Assembly (NCBI GenBank): GCA_963765205.1
Contig: CAVXVB010000005.1
Span: 608,001 to 672,000 of the forward strand
Origin: an uncultured Verrucomicrobiae bacterium
GTDB lineage: Bacteria > Verrucomicrobiota > Verrucomicrobiia > Opitutales > JABDGR01
Direction of reading: 5' to 3'
Length of the DNA: 64,000 nucleotides
The position numbers and the translations under genes were made by a program. Below are positions 17,057 through 24,751 of this stretch, one piece after another; within the stretch, counting starts at the first letter, position 1, and each line of letters begins with the position of its first letter. Under the pieces are notes generated by a model that was given only the letters and a program-made list of their open reading frames with translations, did no database searches and was not told where the DNA came from.

Positions 17057-17977
17057 CTATGGGGATGCGGCGGCTTGCTGGGCCTTCTTCCGCTGCGGGT
17101 AGAGCGTGTTCAAGAAGTCGTCCGGAGTATATAATTGCCCGGCTTCTATGCCGTGTAGTTTGTTGGCATCAAGCGGATAAATTAAGTTCGTGCCATCAGT
17201 CTCGGCGTGGAGCCAAATCACCCTTTCTCGGCCAGGCAGGGGCGGTCCCGTGGGGAGAATCAACAGCCGCACTTCGAATGATCCCGCCTTTACCTGATCC
17301 AACGCGGCCACTTCTTCAAGCGCAGTTACGATCGACTCATTGGTGCCGCCAAAATTCGTGGATACATCTATTTGGCCGTTTCCCATGACTCGCGCCTCTG
17401 CGAAAGAAACTTGCTGGCCGCCCTCTTCGACCAGGTAGATGAATCCCGCGGGCTTGGCGAGCTCCAACCCCGCGCCTTGGATGATGGCGTTGCGATTAGC
17501 CAGATTATATTGGGCGAGTGGTTGCATAATCTCCACATGGTCGGGGTCGGTGATAAATTTTGTTGCAAGACCATCGTCTAAGCTCTCTTGGACAAGCGCA
17601 GTCCCATCCGCATAGCCGGCGGCAAAGCGAAGGTTGCCGAAATCCTTCACGGTCGAGACCTGAGTGACGTCTTCTGGTTTCAGCGGTGCAGGGCCAGGTA
17701 GGTTGGTCGGCGGTTGGATGGTTCGGGCCTGGTTCAGCGTTAGTTGGGGAGTGATGGTAGGAGTCGTGAATAGCGCGATAGCTGGCGACGAGGTGGGGAT
17801 TGGCGAAGAGGTCGGAGTTGGTGCGGAGGCCGGAGTGTTCGCGTTTGCGCGTGGCGAGAGTACTGTAATGGCAGCGGCGGTCGTCGTGGTGGCTGTATGA
17901 CCAAGCCACCAGCAGGCCAAGGCGACGAAGAGCACCAGCGCGAGAAGAAGAATACTGCGCAACCTGGGGGATTTCAT
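17057..17977 (-). CDS. Hypothetical membrane-anchored protein with Pro/Thr linker
   Basis: N-terminal TM, PT-rich linker, globular C-terminus. Confidence 0.7.
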   Translation of the reverse strand: MKSPRLRSILLLALVLFVALACWWLGHTATTTTAAAITVLSPRANANTPASAPTPTSSPIPTSSPAIALFTTPTITPQLTLNQARTIQPPTNLPGPAPLKPEDVTQVSTVKDFGNLRFAAGYADGTALVQESLDDGLATKFITDPDHVEIMQPLAQYNLANRNAIIQGAGLELAKPAGFIYLVEEGGQQVSFAEARVMGNGQIDVSTNFGGTNESIVTALEEVAALDQVKAGSFEVRLLILPTGPPLPGRERVIWLHAETDGTNLIYPLDANKLHGIEAGQLYTPDDFLNTLYPQRKKAQQAAASP

Positions 17978-18103
17978 GCGAGGCAATTGAGGCGAGGGGG
18001 CGATAGTCAATTATCCGCCACCATCAAACCCCAGCAAACCCAAAAAAAGCAATTACCTCTACTTTAATCAACAGAGGCCTGAACTTTCCTACTCGAAACA
18101 AGC

Positions 18104-21100
18104 TTATTTGTTTGCCGCCGCCGCAGGTGGGGGATTTTCAGCCTCGATTTTTTTCAGCAACTCGACGGCTTGGGGATAATAGTCGTCGTTGTGGGAGTAT
18201 TTCACGTAGAGGCGCAGGGGCTGGAGCGCCTCGGGGCGGCGGTTTAATTGCACGAGGGCCTGGGCCTGGTTCCAATAGGTGTCGTAATTGGTCGGGTTGC
18301 GCGCGAGGTAGCTGGTGGCGGCGTCGAGCGCGCCGGCCCAGTCGCCCTGCAAGCGGGCGTCCTCCATGCGCACGACGTCGCGCGAATTTTCGTTGCGCAT
18401 CGTGGCGAGCAGGGCGGTGATCCATTCCCGCGGATAAAGCTTGGGGTCGCCAAGCGCGCGGGCGAGGTCGAAGACTGGCTCGATAGTGTCCATGTCCGGC
18501 AAGGCCCAACTGGCCACGATCGCCTTGGCGGCCTCCTGGTGGGCGACGTCGGTGGCGCGCGTGAGCGCCGCGGCCTTGTTGAGCAGGCGCAGCGCCTTGA
18601 TGTAACCGCCGAGCACAGGCTGCTGCTTGAAGTCGTCCTCGGGCCGCGCGGCAATGAGTTTCTGAAGGTTGTCGCGGTCGCCCTGCTGGAAGTAATAGTC
18701 GAAGGCCAGGCGGAGCTTGAAGGGGTCGAGGTCGGCGGCGGCGAGCGACCCGAAATCGGCGGCGGGGTCAATGGCCTGGCCGACGCGCCATTTCATCAAA
18801 GTGTCGTAATATTGGATAAAACCGCCGGCCTTGGGGAACTCCGTGGCGCGGGCGGGGGCGAGGTCGGCCCAGCCGCGGCGGGCGACGTCGGGGTTGTCGA
18901 AGTCCACGACGGAAGTGAAGTAGCAGGCGGCGTAAAAGCGGTCCTCGTCGCGCGTGGCCAGTTTTTGGGCGGTTTCAAAGAGCTTCATGCGCAGGTCGCT
19001 GTCCGCAGGATCAAAGCTGAGGGTCTGGGCATAATCCATAAAGACTTGCAGGGGATAGCGCCCATAGGGCAGGCGGTCGCGGATGAAGACGAGCAAGCCC
19101 TGGTGGACTTCGTCCTGGGTGAGGAGCGAGAGGTCGGGATTCCACGGGTCGTTCAACTGCTGCCAGGCGGCGGGCCATTGGGCGGCGGCGGCCTGCGGTT
19201 GCGAGTCGAGGATGAGCTGGCGCATGGCTTCGGCCACGGGCTGCACGTTCTTGTAAGTATCCAGCAGCGGTCCGACGCTGTCTTTCAAATCCTTATAGTC
19301 CTGCGCGGCTTCGCCGGCGAGCTGGGACCGCCCCAATTGGTTGAAGTCCCCCTGCGCAGTATCCACCGCGTTCAGACTGGCCAGGACATTGATGATGCGC
19401 GCCAGCAGCAGCACGCTGGGGTGGCGGATGGCGGGCAGCGCGAGAACCTTGAGCGCAAACGCTTGCTGCGCGTCCACGGTGAGGGGCTGGGCGAGATAGT
19501 CGTCCCACAAATCGAAATCCGCTCGATCATCGGCCTCGGTTGTGCTGCCCGAGGGGGTGCTCGCGAACATTTTTTCCGCCGTCGCCCGCTGGCCGGTGAC
19601 CAAGAGATGCAACGTGGTTTGGGACCAGGCGAGGTAACGCAAATCCGAGGGCATTTCCGCGCGCGCGGTGAAGGCATTGGTTCCGTCCGCCAGCGCCGGC
19701 CCGCTCGCAAACATATCCGGATAACCTTCCAGCGCCATTTCCAAGGCGACGACACGCACGGAAAGCGAGGCGGTGTGGTCCAGCGCGCGGTTGAAATCCT
19801 GGGTGACTTCCACGACCGGGTCGTCCACCTTGCTCAAAAGGTCGGCCTGGGCCGGGGCCGTCGCATAATTATACCAAGGCAGGGCCGCCTGCTGCCACCA
19901 GCCGTCGAGGCCCACTTCCAGCCCCTTGCCCTGCAGGGCGCGCTGGTTCAAGTTGTCGAGCGTGGTTTGCAGCGCCTGGCGGATGGCGAGGTTGGGGTCG
20001 CCCGGGTCGGCGGGTTGCGCCAGTTCCTTGATGAGCAGGGCGCGCGCGTCCGCATCCCGCCCCAGCGAGGTGTATAAGTCATTCAACACCGCGACGGCCC
20101 AGAGCCGCTGGGTGCCGTGCGCGGCGGGGTCGGCGAGGGTCTGGGCGAGGAGGGCGGCGGCGGCCGCGCCAAATTTCGCGGTGGAATTCGAGCGCAAAAC
20201 CGTGAAGCCGAAAAGCCGCGCCAGCGCCTGGCCGGTCGTGCCCTCGGAGCCGTATTTATCCAGGAGGCTTTGGACCAGGTCGCGGGCCACGTCGGGTTTG
20301 TCATCGTTCACCAAGGCGGCCGCGCGCAATTGGGCGAGACTTTCCAACACGTCCTTTTCGCCCGCGGGCAGATTACTTTCCAGGACTTCGCCGAGGGCCA
20401 AAATATCGTCCGCGTGGTCGGGCGCGAGGGGAATGCCCTCATACAGTTTGCGGGCCGCCTCAATGAGGTCGGCCGGGCGAAAGCGCCCGGATTGAAACCA
20501 TTGGTCCGTGGCTTGAAAATAAATGGCGGCATTTTTTTGGCTCAGGGCGATGCTGGCCTGGGCCTCGAGCTGGGGATAACTCTCAATATAGGGCGCCAGC
20601 AAGGCCGGCGAGGATTTGACGACGCCCAGCTTGGCCGCCAGCATATTCCATTGCGCCAGCCAGGCTTGCTGGTGATCCCAATAGGCGCGGGCCATTTGGG
20701 GGTCGGCGGTCAGGTTGAGCATATCCTGGATGGCGGGCGCATTCGTCGCGTATTGGTTGAGGATCTCCGCCGGGGCGGCGCGCAATTGGTTGATGACCGC
20801 CAGGGCGTCGTCCGTGCGGCCGAGTTCGAGCAACAACAAGCTTGCGCGCAGCAGCGCCTCGCTGGCGGAAGCGCCCGTCGTCAAATCCTGGCCAGCAATC
20901 CGGTAGGCGGCGATGGCCTCGTCCGTTTGTCCCATATTCTCGTGCAAGTATCCGGCGGTGCCCGCGGCCTCCGCGCGCACGGCCGGCGCGGTTTCCGGCT
21001 GGTTCATCAACCGGTGGAGCACGGCCAGCGCGGCCTCCGGCCCGCCGAGGCCCAGGAAGTATTTCGCCTGCCGCATGCGGATTTGCTGCACCGCGTCCGC

Positions 21101-21589
21101 CGCGGCGGGGAATTGGTCGGCCAGTTCAAAGGTCAGCGTGAGCAGGCCATTGTCATCCATGCTGGGTTCCGCCAGCACTTTGTTCAGGCCGGCCAGCACG
21201 TCGAGGTAGTCCTGCGGGTCCGGGGGCAGCTTGGTGAGGTAATACAGGTAGGTGTCGGCGAGGTCCTGGAAATTGTTGCCCGCTTCGAAAACCTTGATGC
21301 GCTCGTTGGCCTGGTCGCGGTCGAAGTTCATGGCGGAAATGGCGTCCCAGTGTTTGGGTTCCATCTTCTGCAAAAACGCCGCCAGGGCGTCGCGTGCCGC
21401 AGCCTCCGGGCCGGCGGCGGGACGCGGGGCGGCCGGGTTCGCCGCCGGGGCGGCGACCGGGCTGGCGGGCGCCGCGTCCGCGCCCCAGGCCGGCCAGGCC
21501 AACACCGTGATTGCGGCCAGAACAACGGCGCTCGAACGCCAAAGCCGCGAGTTAAAAAGATGTTGTTGGTGTGGTCGCCTCATTCGCAT
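18104..21589 (-). CDS. Large secreted TPR/alpha-solenoid protein
   Basis: 1161 aa, signal peptide (AWG/ADA), TPR-like segments near both ends. Confidence 0.8.
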   Translation of the reverse strand: MRMRRPHQQHLFNSRLWRSSAVVLAAITVLAWPAWGADAAPASPVAAPAANPAAPRPAAGPEAAARDALAAFLQKMEPKHWDAISAMNFDRDQANERIKVFEAGNNFQDLADTYLYYLTKLPPDPQDYLDVLAGLNKVLAEPSMDDNGLLTLTFELADQFPAAADAVQQIRMRQAKYFLGLGGPEAALAVLHRLMNQPETAPAVRAEAAGTAGYLHENMGQTDEAIAAYRIAGQDLTTGASASEALLRASLLLLELGRTDDALAVINQLRAAPAEILNQYATNAPAIQDMLNLTADPQMARAYWDHQQAWLAQWNMLAAKLGVVKSSPALLAPYIESYPQLEAQASIALSQKNAAIYFQATDQWFQSGRFRPADLIEAARKLYEGIPLAPDHADDILALGEVLESNLPAGEKDVLESLAQLRAAALVNDDKPDVARDLVQSLLDKYGSEGTTGQALARLFGFTVLRSNSTAKFGAAAAALLAQTLADPAAHGTQRLWAVAVLNDLYTSLGRDADARALLIKELAQPADPGDPNLAIRQALQTTLDNLNQRALQGKGLEVGLDGWWQQAALPWYNYATAPAQADLLSKVDDPVVEVTQDFNRALDHTASLSVRVVALEMALEGYPDMFASGPALADGTNAFTARAEMPSDLRYLAWSQTTLHLLVTGQRATAEKMFASTPSGSTTEADDRADFDLWDDYLAQPLTVDAQQAFALKVLALPAIRHPSVLLLARIINVLASLNAVDTAQGDFNQLGRSQLAGEAAQDYKDLKDSVGPLLDTYKNVQPVAEAMRQLILDSQPQAAAAQWPAAWQQLNDPWNPDLSLLTQDEVHQGLLVFIRDRLPYGRYPLQVFMDYAQTLSFDPADSDLRMKLFETAQKLATRDEDRFYAACYFTSVVDFDNPDVARRGWADLAPARATEFPKAGGFIQYYDTLMKWRVGQAIDPAADFGSLAAADLDPFKLRLAFDYYFQQGDRDNLQKLIAARPEDDFKQQPVLGGYIKALRLLNKAAALTRATDVAHQEAAKAIVASWALPDMDTIEPVFDLARALGDPKLYPREWITALLATMRNENSRDVVRMEDARLQGDWAGALDAATSYLARNPTNYDTYWNQAQALVQLNRRPEALQPLRLYVKYSHNDDYYPQAVELLKKIEAENPPPAAAANK

Positions 21590-22085
21590 CGGGCCGGGGG
21601 TTGCTCAAATTGGACATTATTTCGTGAAAAGAGTGCCATGGCAATGGCGAAGATGCCAGGAACATGACTCGTTTGAAATCCAGAAAACGTCTTTGGGATT
21701 GTGTGGGCGGATGAATGTGGGGCGGTGGGGGAGGGGGGAAGTTAGAAGTTAGGAGCGAGGAGCTGGAAGTTTATATCTGCGTCGTTTGTCAATTCAGTGG
21801 CGGAATTTTTTTTATTTTTTTGGTTTGATTGGGTTGGATTTACTCCGATTGGGTGGGTCGAGGTGGGGAGTGGGCGGCGGGGATTGGAGTGGGGCACGGG
21901 GCGCAAATATAATCGAAAACGAGCGGGCTGGCCAACGTTGGGTTGGCTGCGTTGGATTGGTTGGATGGGTTTGATGGGTTGGGCGGGAAGAAAAGGAGGA
22001 AGGATGAGGGAGGGATGAAGGATGAAATCGGAAACAGCGCAGTTAAGGGGTTGACGGCCAGGCCGGGTGGCGCCATTGTATATCC

Positions 22086-22328
22086 ATGAAAACGGAAATT
22101 CGACGGTGGGGCAACAGCCTGGCCTTGCGGATTCCCCGGGCGTTTGCGGCGGAGACCGCACTGCGGGAGGGGTCGGCGGTGGATTTGTCGGTGCGGCGGG
22201 GGCGGTTGGTGGTCGCGCCGGAGCGCCGGACGAAATACCATTTGGCGGATTTGCTGCGAAACCTCAAGCCGGCGCAGTTGCCGGGCGAACAGTTCACCGA
22301 CGACGCCGTGGGCAGGGAGATTTGGTGA
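22086..22328 (+). CDS. mazE: AbrB/MazE antitoxin
   Basis: RRWGNSLALRIP, LADLL, VGREIW C-terminus. Confidence 0.93.
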   Translation: MKTEIRRWGNSLALRIPRAFAAETALREGSAVDLSVRRGRLVVAPERRTKYHLADLLRNLKPAQLPGEQFTDDAVGREIW

Positions 22329-23578
22329 TGGCCGGCTATGTTCCACGCCGGGGCGATTTGGTCTGGCTGCGTTTTTCTCCGCAGGCCGGGCATGAACAGG
22401 CGGGGCACCGGCCGGCCTTGGTGATTTCAGCGGAGAGCTACAACCGTCTCACGGGACTGGCGCTGTTTTGTCCGATTACGAACAAGCGCAAAGGTTATGC
22501 GTTGGTCCTTCTGTTGGGGTTAATTTTGTTAGCTACTTACGAGATCAAGGCTGACACAGCGTCTCTGCCTTCTGCAGCTAAACTGACTGAATTTAAGCCT
22601 GAAAATGGAGGCTTTTCCATTATGACACCAGTAGCCTTGGTCGATCAAACGAGCATAAATAACCTAGCCACTCAGACCCAAATTTTGGCCGGTGGCAAAA
22701 ATTCCTCACAGAGCGCACCTGAATTTCACTTATTTGTTGGGGGTGATAAAACACTCGCTCTGATCGTGGGCTATACAACATTCCCGGCGGATATTGAGCA
22801 CGTTGATCCTAACCGCAGCATAGATATAATTCGTGATGGGCTAGTGAAAGATATGCAGTTGACAAAGCTGGCCGAGAGTCCGTTGACAATTGACGGCCAT
22901 CCAGGACGCGAAATTACCGCTATCAGCACGAAATCCGGTGCCACGCTCAATTTCGATGCGCGGTGTTATACGGTTGGGCAGCGCCTTTACCAGATCATGG
23001 CAGTTATCACGCCAGATAATGCAGACACCATCATGGCAAACAATTTTCTGCAATCGTTTAAGCTATTGCCCAACATTGCCAATGAGGACGTGGCGGGGTC
23101 GGCCCCAAAGGCGAAGGAATATAAATTTACCGAAGGCGGTTTTTCGGTAACATCGCTGGTTCCACTAACCCAAACGACACAGAACCTGAAATCCTCTCAA
23201 GGTGATTATGTTTATGTCCGCCATTTGTTTATGGGCCATGCAGGGTTGATTTATTTCTATGTTGCATATATTGACTCACCTGTGAATGACGAAACTCATC
23301 AGCCAGATTTAAAGTTAAATGCTATGAGGGACGCGACCATAACCGGAATGCATGCAAAGCTGCTGGATGAAAGAAAAGTTTCTATCGATGGGCATCCAGG
23401 AAAAGAATATGATTATATTCGTTCCTTTAACACCCCGCCTGATATCGAATATAAAACGCGAGCCTTTTTGGTTGGCTCCAAGGTTTATGAAGTGACAGTC
23501 TTCGCACCAAAAGATACCTCTGGCGATTCGATTTTAGATTCGTTTCTCAACTCCTTCACACTGTTGCCCAGCCCTTGA
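22328..23578 (+). CDS. Chimeric ORF: MazF N-terminal 57 aa fused to hydrophobic segment and two PsbP/Mog1-like domains
   Basis: YVPRRGDLVWLRFSPQAGHEQAGHRPALVIS...CPITNKRKGY then ALVLLLGLILLA; duplicated GGFS...IDGHPG.E...FL.SF.L domain; TGATG overlap with mazE. Confidence 0.8.
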   Translation: MAGYVPRRGDLVWLRFSPQAGHEQAGHRPALVISAESYNRLTGLALFCPITNKRKGYALVLLLGLILLATYEIKADTASLPSAAKLTEFKPENGGFSIMTPVALVDQTSINNLATQTQILAGGKNSSQSAPEFHLFVGGDKTLALIVGYTTFPADIEHVDPNRSIDIIRDGLVKDMQLTKLAESPLTIDGHPGREITAISTKSGATLNFDARCYTVGQRLYQIMAVITPDNADTIMANNFLQSFKLLPNIANEDVAGSAPKAKEYKFTEGGFSVTSLVPLTQTTQNLKSSQGDYVYVRHLFMGHAGLIYFYVAYIDSPVNDETHQPDLKLNAMRDATITGMHAKLLDERKVSIDGHPGKEYDYIRSFNTPPDIEYKTRAFLVGSKVYEVTVFAPKDTSGDSILDSFLNSFTLLPSP

Positions 23579-23679
23579 TTGTTTGTTACAAAGCCAAAAA
23601 AAGATCAGGGCCAAAACAGGTTCAGGCTGTTTCTTCTTATCATGATCAAGAACAGTCGAGCAGGGCGATCATTTCCTTT

Positions 23680-24162
23680 TCATTCCGCGGCGGTGCGGGA
23701 GGGGCGGTCGAGGGAGTCTTTGACTTTGTCGAGGATGCCGTTGAGGAAGCGGCGGGAGTCGGGGTTCGAGAAGGTCTTGCCGAGTTCGATGGCTTCGTTG
23801 ATGGTCACTACTGGCGGGATGTCGCGGCGGTGGAGGAGTTCGAAAATCCCGAGGCGCAGGATGGCGAGGTCCACGCGCGCGATGCGGTTGAAGGCCCAGT
23901 TGTGCGCGTGGTTTTTGATGAGTTCGTCAACCGCCGCCTGGTGCTCGAGCAGGCCGTGGATGAGTTCCTCGGCAAAGGCGTAGTATTCGCGCGGGTGCTC
24001 CTGCTCGCTGAAGAAGTGGGTCAGGACGCCGGGCAAATCGTCGCTGGGGTTGGCGTCCCACATATAGAGGAACTGCATCGCGGCGACGCGGCAGTCGCGC
24101 CGGCGGCTGGCTTTGGCCGGGGCGGTGGCCGGGGTGGCCGGGGCGGTTTCGTCGGTGGGCAT
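23680..24162 (-). CDS. nusB: Transcription antitermination factor NusB
   Basis: RRRDCRVAAMQFLY, NWAFNRIARVDLAILR, INEAIELGK, FLNGILD. Confidence 0.97.
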   Translation of the reverse strand: MPTDETAPATPATAPAKASRRRDCRVAAMQFLYMWDANPSDDLPGVLTHFFSEQEHPREYYAFAEELIHGLLEHQAAVDELIKNHAHNWAFNRIARVDLAILRLGIFELLHRRDIPPVVTINEAIELGKTFSNPDSRRFLNGILDKVKDSLDRPSRTAAE

Positions 24163-24175
24163 GAAAATTTTTCCT

Positions 24176-24751
24176 TCAGTTGTTCTTGAAAAGCTGTTTC
24201 GGGTCGAAGCCTTCGTCCTCGTCGTCATCGTCTTCTTCCTCGTCGAGGTCTTCCTTTTCGTCTTCCAATTCGTCGAGGCGCTCGACGAGCTGGAGCTTGT
24301 GCCAGGCCATCTGCAAGGCGGCACGGGCAAACTCGGCGCCGCGGTCGCGCGGGGCCACGATGCGTTCGCGCGCCTGCTCGAGCGAATTCACCGTGAGGAT
24401 GCCGTTGATGACGGGAATTTCCGACTGCATGCCAATTGAGTGCAGCGAATAGGCGGTGCCGTAGCTGATGACCTCGTGGTGGGAAGTCTCGCCGGCGACG
24501 ACGACGCCGAGGGCGATCAGGCAGTCGAACTCGCCGGTGGCGGCGAGCATGTGCGCGGCGTAGGGAATCTCGTTCGAGCCGGGGACGCGCAGGATTTCGA
24601 TATTGCGCTCGCGCACGCCGTGCTGGCGCAGCGTGGCCACCACGCGGGCGAGCAGCGCGTCCACCAGTTCGCCGTTATAGCGGGCGGCGACGATGCCGAG
24701 GAAATAGTCCGCGCCGTCAATCTGCGCCGGGTCGGGAGGAGAATCGCTCAT
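24176..24751 (-). CDS. ribH: 6,7-dimethyl-8-ribityllumazine synthase with acidic C-terminal tail
   Basis: GIVAARYN, VPGSNEIP, ALGVVVAGETSH, PVINGILT. Confidence 0.95.
   Translation of the reverse strand: MSDSPPDPAQIDGADYFLGIVAARYNGELVDALLARVVATLRQHGVRERNIEILRVPGSNEIPYAAHMLAATGEFDCLIALGVVVAGETSHHEVISYGTAYSLHSIGMQSEIPVINGILTVNSLEQARERIVAPRDRGAEFARAALQMAWHKLQLVERLDELEDEKEDLDEEEDDDDEDEGFDPKQLFKNN

Follow-up and report, generated by a model that had tools for sequence, protein, structure and literature searches.

A mazF toxin gene stub joined in frame to a gene for a predicted exported protein with two Mog1p/PsbP-fold domains in an Opitutales genome

In the mazEF toxin-antitoxin (TA) operon (E. 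coli MazE/MazF, PDB 1ub4; MazF 7d28; PRK09907), an AbrB-type antitoxin gene precedes the toxin gene, and the stop codon of the former overlaps the start codon of the latter. According to the parts of the literature cited here, MazF is a dimer with an extensive interface, RNA is bound by the β1-β2, β3-β4, and β4-β5 loops, and the linkers with the catalytic Arg and Thr are β1-β2 and β3-β4 (PMC7180214). The cited parts of two further sources report that MazF raises the affinity of MazE for its operator (PMC4333400), and that chromosomal TA systems degenerate, with neutral evolution of chromosomal CcdB-like toxins (PMC3920263). The locus analyzed here shares with mazEF the upstream AbrB-type antitoxin gene, the overlapping stop and start codons, and the N-terminal half of the toxin with the positions of the catalytic Arg and Thr, whereas residues 59-113 of the toxin are gone and a predicted export signal and two unrelated domains stand in their place.

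Structure of the locus and verification of the join

The analyzed stretch of 64,000 nucleotides (hereafter the window; G000:C5:608001-672000) belongs to a 4.0-Mb genome (G000), which comprises 12 contigs and is 92% complete. A named protein that clusters with its PurL points to Opitutales. The sequencing run with the best match to the sequence is labeled soil metagenome, and no RNA data set was among the runs listed for it. The features of the locus are listed in Table 1. An earlier reading of this DNA, made from the sequence only, had proposed that an intact mazE precedes a coupled open reading frame (ORF), and the antitoxin gene indeed encodes a protein with a PF04014 match, which is 56-74% identical to the MazE of three related genomes, and overlaps the fusion ORF in the motif TGATG. 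An overlapping mazE-mazF layout is common to the related genomes G006, G007, and G008. Judged from the AbrB-type mazE directly upstream and the predicted translational coupling, the locus is a mazEF operon in origin. The frame of the fusion is also open upstream across mazE (window 22067-22328), and gene callers add 74 residues to MazF in the collected proteins P0005 and P0174; this upstream-extended start is an annotation artefact.

Table 1 Features of the locus, with positions in the window unless a contig is named
Feature	Position	Strand	Basis
Large TPR-repeat protein, divergent flanking gene	18104-21589	-	Profile search
Probable mazEF promoter: -35-like TTGACG, 17-nt spacer, -10-like CATTGT, 6 nt to mazE ATG	22051-22079	+	Putative; layout and spacing common to 4/4 aligned mazE upstream regions
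Operator-like box GTGGCGCC, changed relative to kin	22067-22074	+	Kin alignment; putative role as MazE site
mazE antitoxin, intact, 80 aa	22086-22328	+	PF04014, E 4.7e-10
Fusion ORF, 416 aa	22328-23578	+	ORF call
mazF 5′ half, codons 1-58, with R28 and T51	22328-22501	+	PF02452
Junction codon 59; also in-frame TTG with AAAGG at 22490-22494 (candidate internal start)	22502-22504	+	Alignment with intact MazFs; DNA likeness to kin ends
Remainder of predicted passenger signal peptide: h-region 59-69, probable c-region 70-75	22502-22552	+	Hydropathy
Mog1p/PsbP-fold domain 1, residues 83-247	22574-23068	+	Fold match; own family HMM E 3e-44; PsbP_2 at E 0.001, under its cut-off
Mog1p/PsbP-fold domain 2, residues 259-413	23102-23566	+	Own family HMM E 4e-45; fold match
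Fusion stop codon	23576-23578	+	ORF
AT-rich 3′ flank up to nusB stop codon, one end of rearrangement breakpoint	23579-23679	.	GC 40-45%
nusB, convergent flanking gene	23680-24162	-	PF01029
Single-base indel regions, G000	C2:185200-187850, C2:100200-101970, C5:571600-578500, C7:52970-53910, C8:481100-483200, C9:459980-461870

In a profile search, residues 7-58 of the fusion matched positions 1-51 of the 109 positions of PF02452 (PemK; E = 4e-14), and the sole Pfam match in the rest of the ORF was PsbP_2, below its cut-off. The score of the stub against NCBIfam PRK09907 was 77.7, compared to an equivalog cut-off of 120. The Arg of an RPA motif and the Thr of a CPIT motif noted earlier were confirmed as R28 and T51, presumably equivalent to the catalytic pair of E. 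coli MazF, and are invariant across five aligned MazFs.

Three related MazFs are intact, share 79-84% identity with the stub over residues 1-57, and then continue with PFEV. The closest intact MazF among the best 120 of 1868 hits in the protein collection (P0174) is 93% identical to the stub and reads KRKGY-A-FEV, with Ala58 included. Since P0174 continues with AFEV, Ala58 is native and the join lies inside codon 59. The MazF part is in frame with the passenger as previously described, but has a length of 58 rather than 57 codons; likewise, a hydrophobic stretch does follow mazF, but the switch occurs at codon 59 and not at ~22498. In the same best 120 of 1868 short MazF hits, PFE was found in 109 and AFE in three, while eight were without the motif used; all 112 motif-bearing hits have Phe at the junction position, and none carries a signal-like stretch at the join (five had odd tails). 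A start codon of the passenger (the part of the fusion behind the stub) at an out-of-frame ATG at 22497, combined with a one-base slip, was considered and rejected because this is mazF sequence and P0174 has Tyr-Ala at positions 57-58.

Beyond the join the sequence becomes richer in AT and encodes two repeated domains, both as anticipated from the sequence-only reading. The GC content is 66% in mazE, 60% in the mazF part, and 46% in the passenger (genome, 61%), and GC3 amounts to 0.83, 0.67, and 0.47, respectively. The low GC content persists from the join to the nusB stop codon, and windows as AT-rich as the passenger account for 1.5% of 8025 genome windows. Residues 58-69 form the strongest hydrophobic stretch in the protein (11-residue Kyte-Doolittle mean 3.3), and the two passenger domains share 31% identity (E = 4e-22).

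The fusion is real. One contig of run X1 spans positions 22042-24200, and with them the junction, with no differences and no gaps at a mean word depth of 5.6; this check was made at the level of contigs, and X1 probably corresponds to the source sample. The fusion frame is also encoded, under a mis-called upstream start, by another Logan contig of 1,988 nt. No loose contig ends were detected near the junction among 15 of the 24 listed. In run X2, which stems from another study, two short contigs are identical to 23091-23259 and 23474-23624, matching the passenger and its 3′ flank, and the gene is therefore not confined to one sample. No contigs over the junction were found in runs X2 and X3, and run X4 gave no match at the locus.

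That the fusion stems from chimeric assembly or from an erroneous indel is highly improbable. The assembly does contain single-base indels in conserved genes (nine candidates among 222 queries, eight of them in sense genes), and the X1 contig probably comes from the assembled sample itself, but both contigs agree with the fusion frame and the junction carries no repeat. Moreover, none of three frameshifted fragments had a Logan source, compared to five of five other G000 proteins including the fusion. This control is weak, as six fragments were looked up of which three were in the collection, the length of contigs may explain the pattern, and one full-length Logan mate represents another strain. 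P0017 was considered as a corrected copy from the same strain and rejected, being a 90-95% relative. The indel rate of 1 per 15-25 kb is only rough, because the denominator of 155 'sense-like' ORFs includes many antisense shadows. By sequence reading, the indel-broken genes include rsmH, ftsI, cytochrome b, purL, and others, and frameshift-type findings in this assembly warrant checking against reads.

The toxin remnant and the predicted expression of the fusion

A full PemK domain has ~110 aa, and the C-terminal half missing from the stub was not found in G000 by protein and DNA searches with the C-terminal halves from three kin. In a low-confidence model of an intact related MazF (pLDDT 56), strands 59-64 and 85-92 and the helix 95-110 follow the cut, and the elements of the RNA groove that lie past residue 58 include the β4-β5 loop and the C-terminal helix. 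Because elements of the dimer interface and the RNA loops fall after the cut, the stub should be inactive and is most likely a dead toxin without RNase activity; it would neither fold nor dimerise, and would then serve neither as RNase nor as corepressor. By its family scores, the fusion appears to stand outside the functional MazF family. Because of its PF02452 match, the 416-aa protein will be annotated as a MazF toxin, which it most likely is not.

A membrane-tethered MazF fragment that binds MazE, as decoy or as localised regulator, had also been suggested. MazE reportedly binds across the MazF dimer in the 1UB4 structure. The intact mazE, the lack of excess divergence in the stub, and a single h-region that could stay uncleaved are in line with such a fragment. 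However, the MazF dimer is described with an extensive interface in the cited part of PMC7180214, whereas the fusion lacks roughly one half of the subunit, and no intact cognate MazF is left in the genome to regulate. On these mainly structural grounds a tethered MazE-binding fragment is very unlikely.

A consensus promoter scan did not list the putative mazEF promoter at 22051-22079, and the promoter layout upstream of mazE suggests that the message may be leaderless. The operator-like box reads GTAGCTAC in two kin and GTAGATAC in one, and three positions common to the three kin differ here. Since MazF strengthens the binding of MazE to the operator in the cited part of PMC4333400, repression by MazE only should be weak; MazE alone would leave the operon steadily transcribed. 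Ribosomes coupled from mazE would read the fusion, in which the stub would form an over-long n-region ending in NKRK. The h-region would route the protein to Sec, and signal peptidase, with a probable cleavage site after Ala75 by rule of thumb only, would free the tandem domain in the periplasm; without cleavage, the protein would remain anchored and its stub would lie in the cytoplasm. The fusion has a strong h-region and a basic patch, but the candidate n-region comprises 58 residues. The NKRK motif sits where an n-region would be, as proposed earlier for the KRK of MazF, and its role as n-region is predicted. Overall, expression of the passenger from the mazEF promoter probably continues, and its product is probably exported.

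It is unlikely that most translation begins at the in-frame TTG (22502) and that the long fusion is a minor or unstable product. The sequence AAAGG is located 7 nt upstream of this TTG, and a product starting there would keep the h- and c-regions. However, AAAGG is part of the normal coding sequence of mazF (Lys-Gly), ribosomes that initiated at the coupled mazF start would pass over it, and the product would be without a charged n-region. Local RNA may also pair over the site, no better than in shuffled sequences (z = -0.4).

The passenger family and its fold

The passenger belongs to an unnamed family with 1309 representatives at E ≤ 0.001, and the best identities to relatives are 33-38% over at least 120 residues. 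Among the 150 best relatives, an N-terminal h-region was found in 125 of the 144 that start with M, beginning at residue 4-11 in 104, and 45 have a lipobox-like motif. Because the h-region of the relatives starts at residue 4-11, only the start and a few codons were lost in the passenger. Of the 301 Opitutales genomes, 19 were found to contain the family, with a single copy in G000.

Copies from the same genus share with the passenger the motifs, the tandem domains, and the N-terminal signal, whereas they have a GC content of 57-62%, their own starts, and often a lipobox, as opposed to 46% GC, no lipobox Cys, and a different site for the passenger. Tandem arrays of exported PsbP-fold genes exist in G001 (three genes, 355-501 aa; L019:158-4379) and G003 (four genes, about 190-350 aa; L020:989-4581), with a GC content of 57-62% and lipoboxes in many. 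In G003 and G007, a family gene is located just after a mannose-6-phosphate-isomerase-like gene. This large, unnamed exported PsbP-fold family, arrayed in the genus, is a by-product of the analysis.

Based on a structure model (7-sequence alignment, pLDDT 79), each passenger domain is predicted to adopt the Mog1p/PsbP fold. Domain 2 matched the cyanobacterial PsbP 2xb3 with a VIA Z score of 16.2 (rmsd 2.5, 138 aligned residues), and further matches of the model were LpqN (Z 13.0), the T6SS immunity protein TplEi (11.1), and DcrB (10.6); the Foldseek match had an E value of 3.8e-5. The PsbP_2 score was 19.5 bits at a curated cut-off of 27, the profile search listed no DcrB or PsbP Pfam matches, and the Atlas neighbors of the passenger are unnamed and score <0.9. 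Compared with the known proteins of this fold (CyanoP/PsbP 2xb3, LpqN 6e5d, MTC28, DcrB 6e8a, TplEi/Tli4 5h7y and 4r1d, Tsi3 4luq, and EagR-type 1tu1 and 6xrb), the passenger shares the domain fold (Z 8-16) and, as in most of them, a predicted exported location, but the identity is 9-17%, no curated family cut-off is reached, and no toxin or photosystem neighbor is present.

Mog1p/PsbP-fold proteins are mostly non-enzymatic binding proteins, and the shared fold alone shows no function. By eye, we found no effector-like neighbors within 1.5 kb on either side of 15 family loci, nor in the arrays of G001 and G003, and no conserved neighbors were evident at the family loci. VipB was not found in G000. 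Our best guess for the passenger is a protein-binding component of the envelope without enzymatic activity, or an orphan immunity protein, in either case with no neighbor support.

Origin of the fusion and broken mazF genes in the order

The stub differs from intact kin at 9-12 of 57 residues, and the intact kin differ from each other at 9-10. A recent break fits these numbers, since the stub diverged no faster than intact genes. No repeat or target-site duplication was found at the join, which together with the failure to find the mazF 3′ half argues for a deletion or replacement and not a simple insertion; an insertion with a displaced mazF 3′ half or a target-site repeat was rejected as neither was found. 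Searches for a donor or parent locus found none (one locus at 34% identity in a metagenome scan, and 80 loci at 44-64% identity in a genome scan with P0174), so that deletion and replacement are inseparable. The earlier proposal that an incoming gene replaced half of mazF agrees with the disappearance of the 3′ half from the genome, but a replacement cannot be distinguished from a deletion between neighbors. Most likely, the join between mazF and the passenger arose by a recent deletion or illegitimate recombination.

The reading that we favor, with a probability of about 0.7, is ordinary toxin decay that by chance stayed in frame. The event would have removed mazF from codon 59 on and also truncated an AT-rich gene of foreign origin by its start codon and the few codons behind it, and an in-frame join would be expected by chance in ~1 in 3 cases. 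If selection acted, its target would have been the loss of the toxin, with the fusion as a by-product. The locus is best explained in this manner, which requires no new biology. Chimeric genes can arise at deletion junctions, where a resident gene contributes its 5′ end, and thereby the start and the initial codons, in frame. The fusion resembles this class, except that the contributing gene encodes a toxin and has left no intact second copy.

Broken PemK genes are ordinary in the order. We detected 147 PemK matches in 79 of 301 Opitutales genomes, of which eight contain a stop and seven do not extend past profile position 62 (one of the seven is located at a contig edge). Five other loci were inspected. 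In one of them (L108; G137:C9:86054-86212), mazF is broken by an IS3-type transposase at codon 59-60, equivalent to the cut of the stub, and in another (L111; G111:C3:257319-257411) the frame of half a PemK gene continues into an unrelated ORF of 105 aa. The remaining three comprise one frameshift and two other partial genes. G000 itself has four PemK matches, two of which are cut within ~10 codons of the same position. The second of these (C7:373693-374182; L107:1294-1783) follows carB and an intact antitoxin gene and is cut after ~codon 48; it has no cargo, and a convergent gene, which by sequence reading is birA-like, ends 45 bases further on. This gene is whole at the same site in G002, and the cut form is also present in Logan. 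The pattern resembles the TA decay described in the cited part of PMC3920263 in that the toxin is broken and the antitoxin kept, twice in G000 and also in other Opitutales, but differs from it in that the frame of the broken toxin stays open over a long distance through a foreign gene that is intact.

The same fusion was searched for elsewhere by each of its halves, and was found in this sequence alone. No second MazF-PsbP fusion was detected among the 147 PemK matches in the 301 related genomes and 150 passenger relatives, and this fusion was the only one of the 147 with a PemK frame of >227 aa. A search for long fusions yielded four hits among the best 8000 scored candidates, and a weak search for long MazF fusions (eight candidates) retrieved the fusion alone. 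None of the 150 best passenger relatives contains MazF sequence, and none of 98 other mazF loci is flanked by a passenger-family gene within the flanks examined; in G007 a family gene is present upstream of mazE at a distance of 2.7 kb, on the far side of ftsK. A literature search that covered mainly open-access titles and the beginnings of abstracts gave no case of an exported protein joined to part of MazF. A different and recurrent MazF fusion is present in the protein collection (P0004, 281 aa), in which a complete MazF is followed in frame by DUF4258 (PF14076; four members, 16 contigs, three sources).

We further considered that the capture of promoter and start was selected, meaning that the fusion was kept for the promoter, the start codon, and the n-region, and that the operator eroded to escape MazE. 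The exact in-frame placement with a basic patch followed by a complete h-region, the 359 intact passenger codons with the motifs of both domains kept, the operator-like box altered at three conserved positions, the identity of the passenger and 3′ flank in a second study (X2), and the status of the passenger as the sole family member in G000 are in line with this reading. The first four of these features, however, also fit a young accident. In addition, the fusion was found once, a twin truncation without cargo exists in the same genome, and the passenger family looks dispensable because it was not found in four of seven same-genus genomes (50-92% complete). We regard a selected capture as unlikely, its only hint being the changed operator-like box. 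The earlier statement that the gene took over the TA promoter and start remains correct in that the passenger lies in frame behind the mazF start and the putative mazEF promoter, but the single finding of the fusion, the cargo-free half-length mazF, and the Opitutales mazFs broken likewise by IS3 or frameshift argue against a selected takeover. It is similarly improbable that the TA operon is turning into a platform for expression and export, in which the stub acts as n-region of a signal peptide, the operator has eroded, and an acquired envelope protein, possibly an orphan immunity protein against periplasmic effectors, is kept by selection. If selection on the fusion were true, the locus would represent a natural recycling of a TA promoter and toxin start for the expression and export of a foreign protein. 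As ordinary decay, it is a tidy case of the death of a chromosomal toxin gene, and chance in-frame joins of this kind are raw material for new genes.

The surroundings of the locus are rearranged as well. The gene ftsY directly follows nusB in seven of nine kin but is 50 kb away in G000, and a subtilisin-like gene, which is located upstream of the TPR gene in four of six kin examined, lies beside ftsY in G000. Because ftsY and the subtilisin-like gene adjoin 50 kb away, the cassette appears to fill one inversion breakpoint. The probable ~50 kb inversion (G000:C5:580880-631680) would have split two pairs of neighbors, nusB and ftsY as well as the TPR gene and the subtilisin-like gene. That the junction itself is an inversion breakpoint was rejected, as the region beside ftsY contains no mazF or passenger sequence. 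In kin, mazEF is sited elsewhere, beside folC (G007, G008) or beside purN (G006).

The gene next to the TPR gene (window 17057-18010, minus strand) encodes a protein of 317 aa, which has a hydrophobic stretch at its N-terminus and did not match any Pfam family. A dispersed intergenic repeat of ~76 bp with a TATAAT-like head and a GGTTGG-rich tail lies upstream of mazE (window 21908-21983); its 16 hits in G000 (the window copy and about 15 others) showed no tie to AT-rich cassettes or TA genes. Heptamer-like purine runs are present at window positions 21985-22030.
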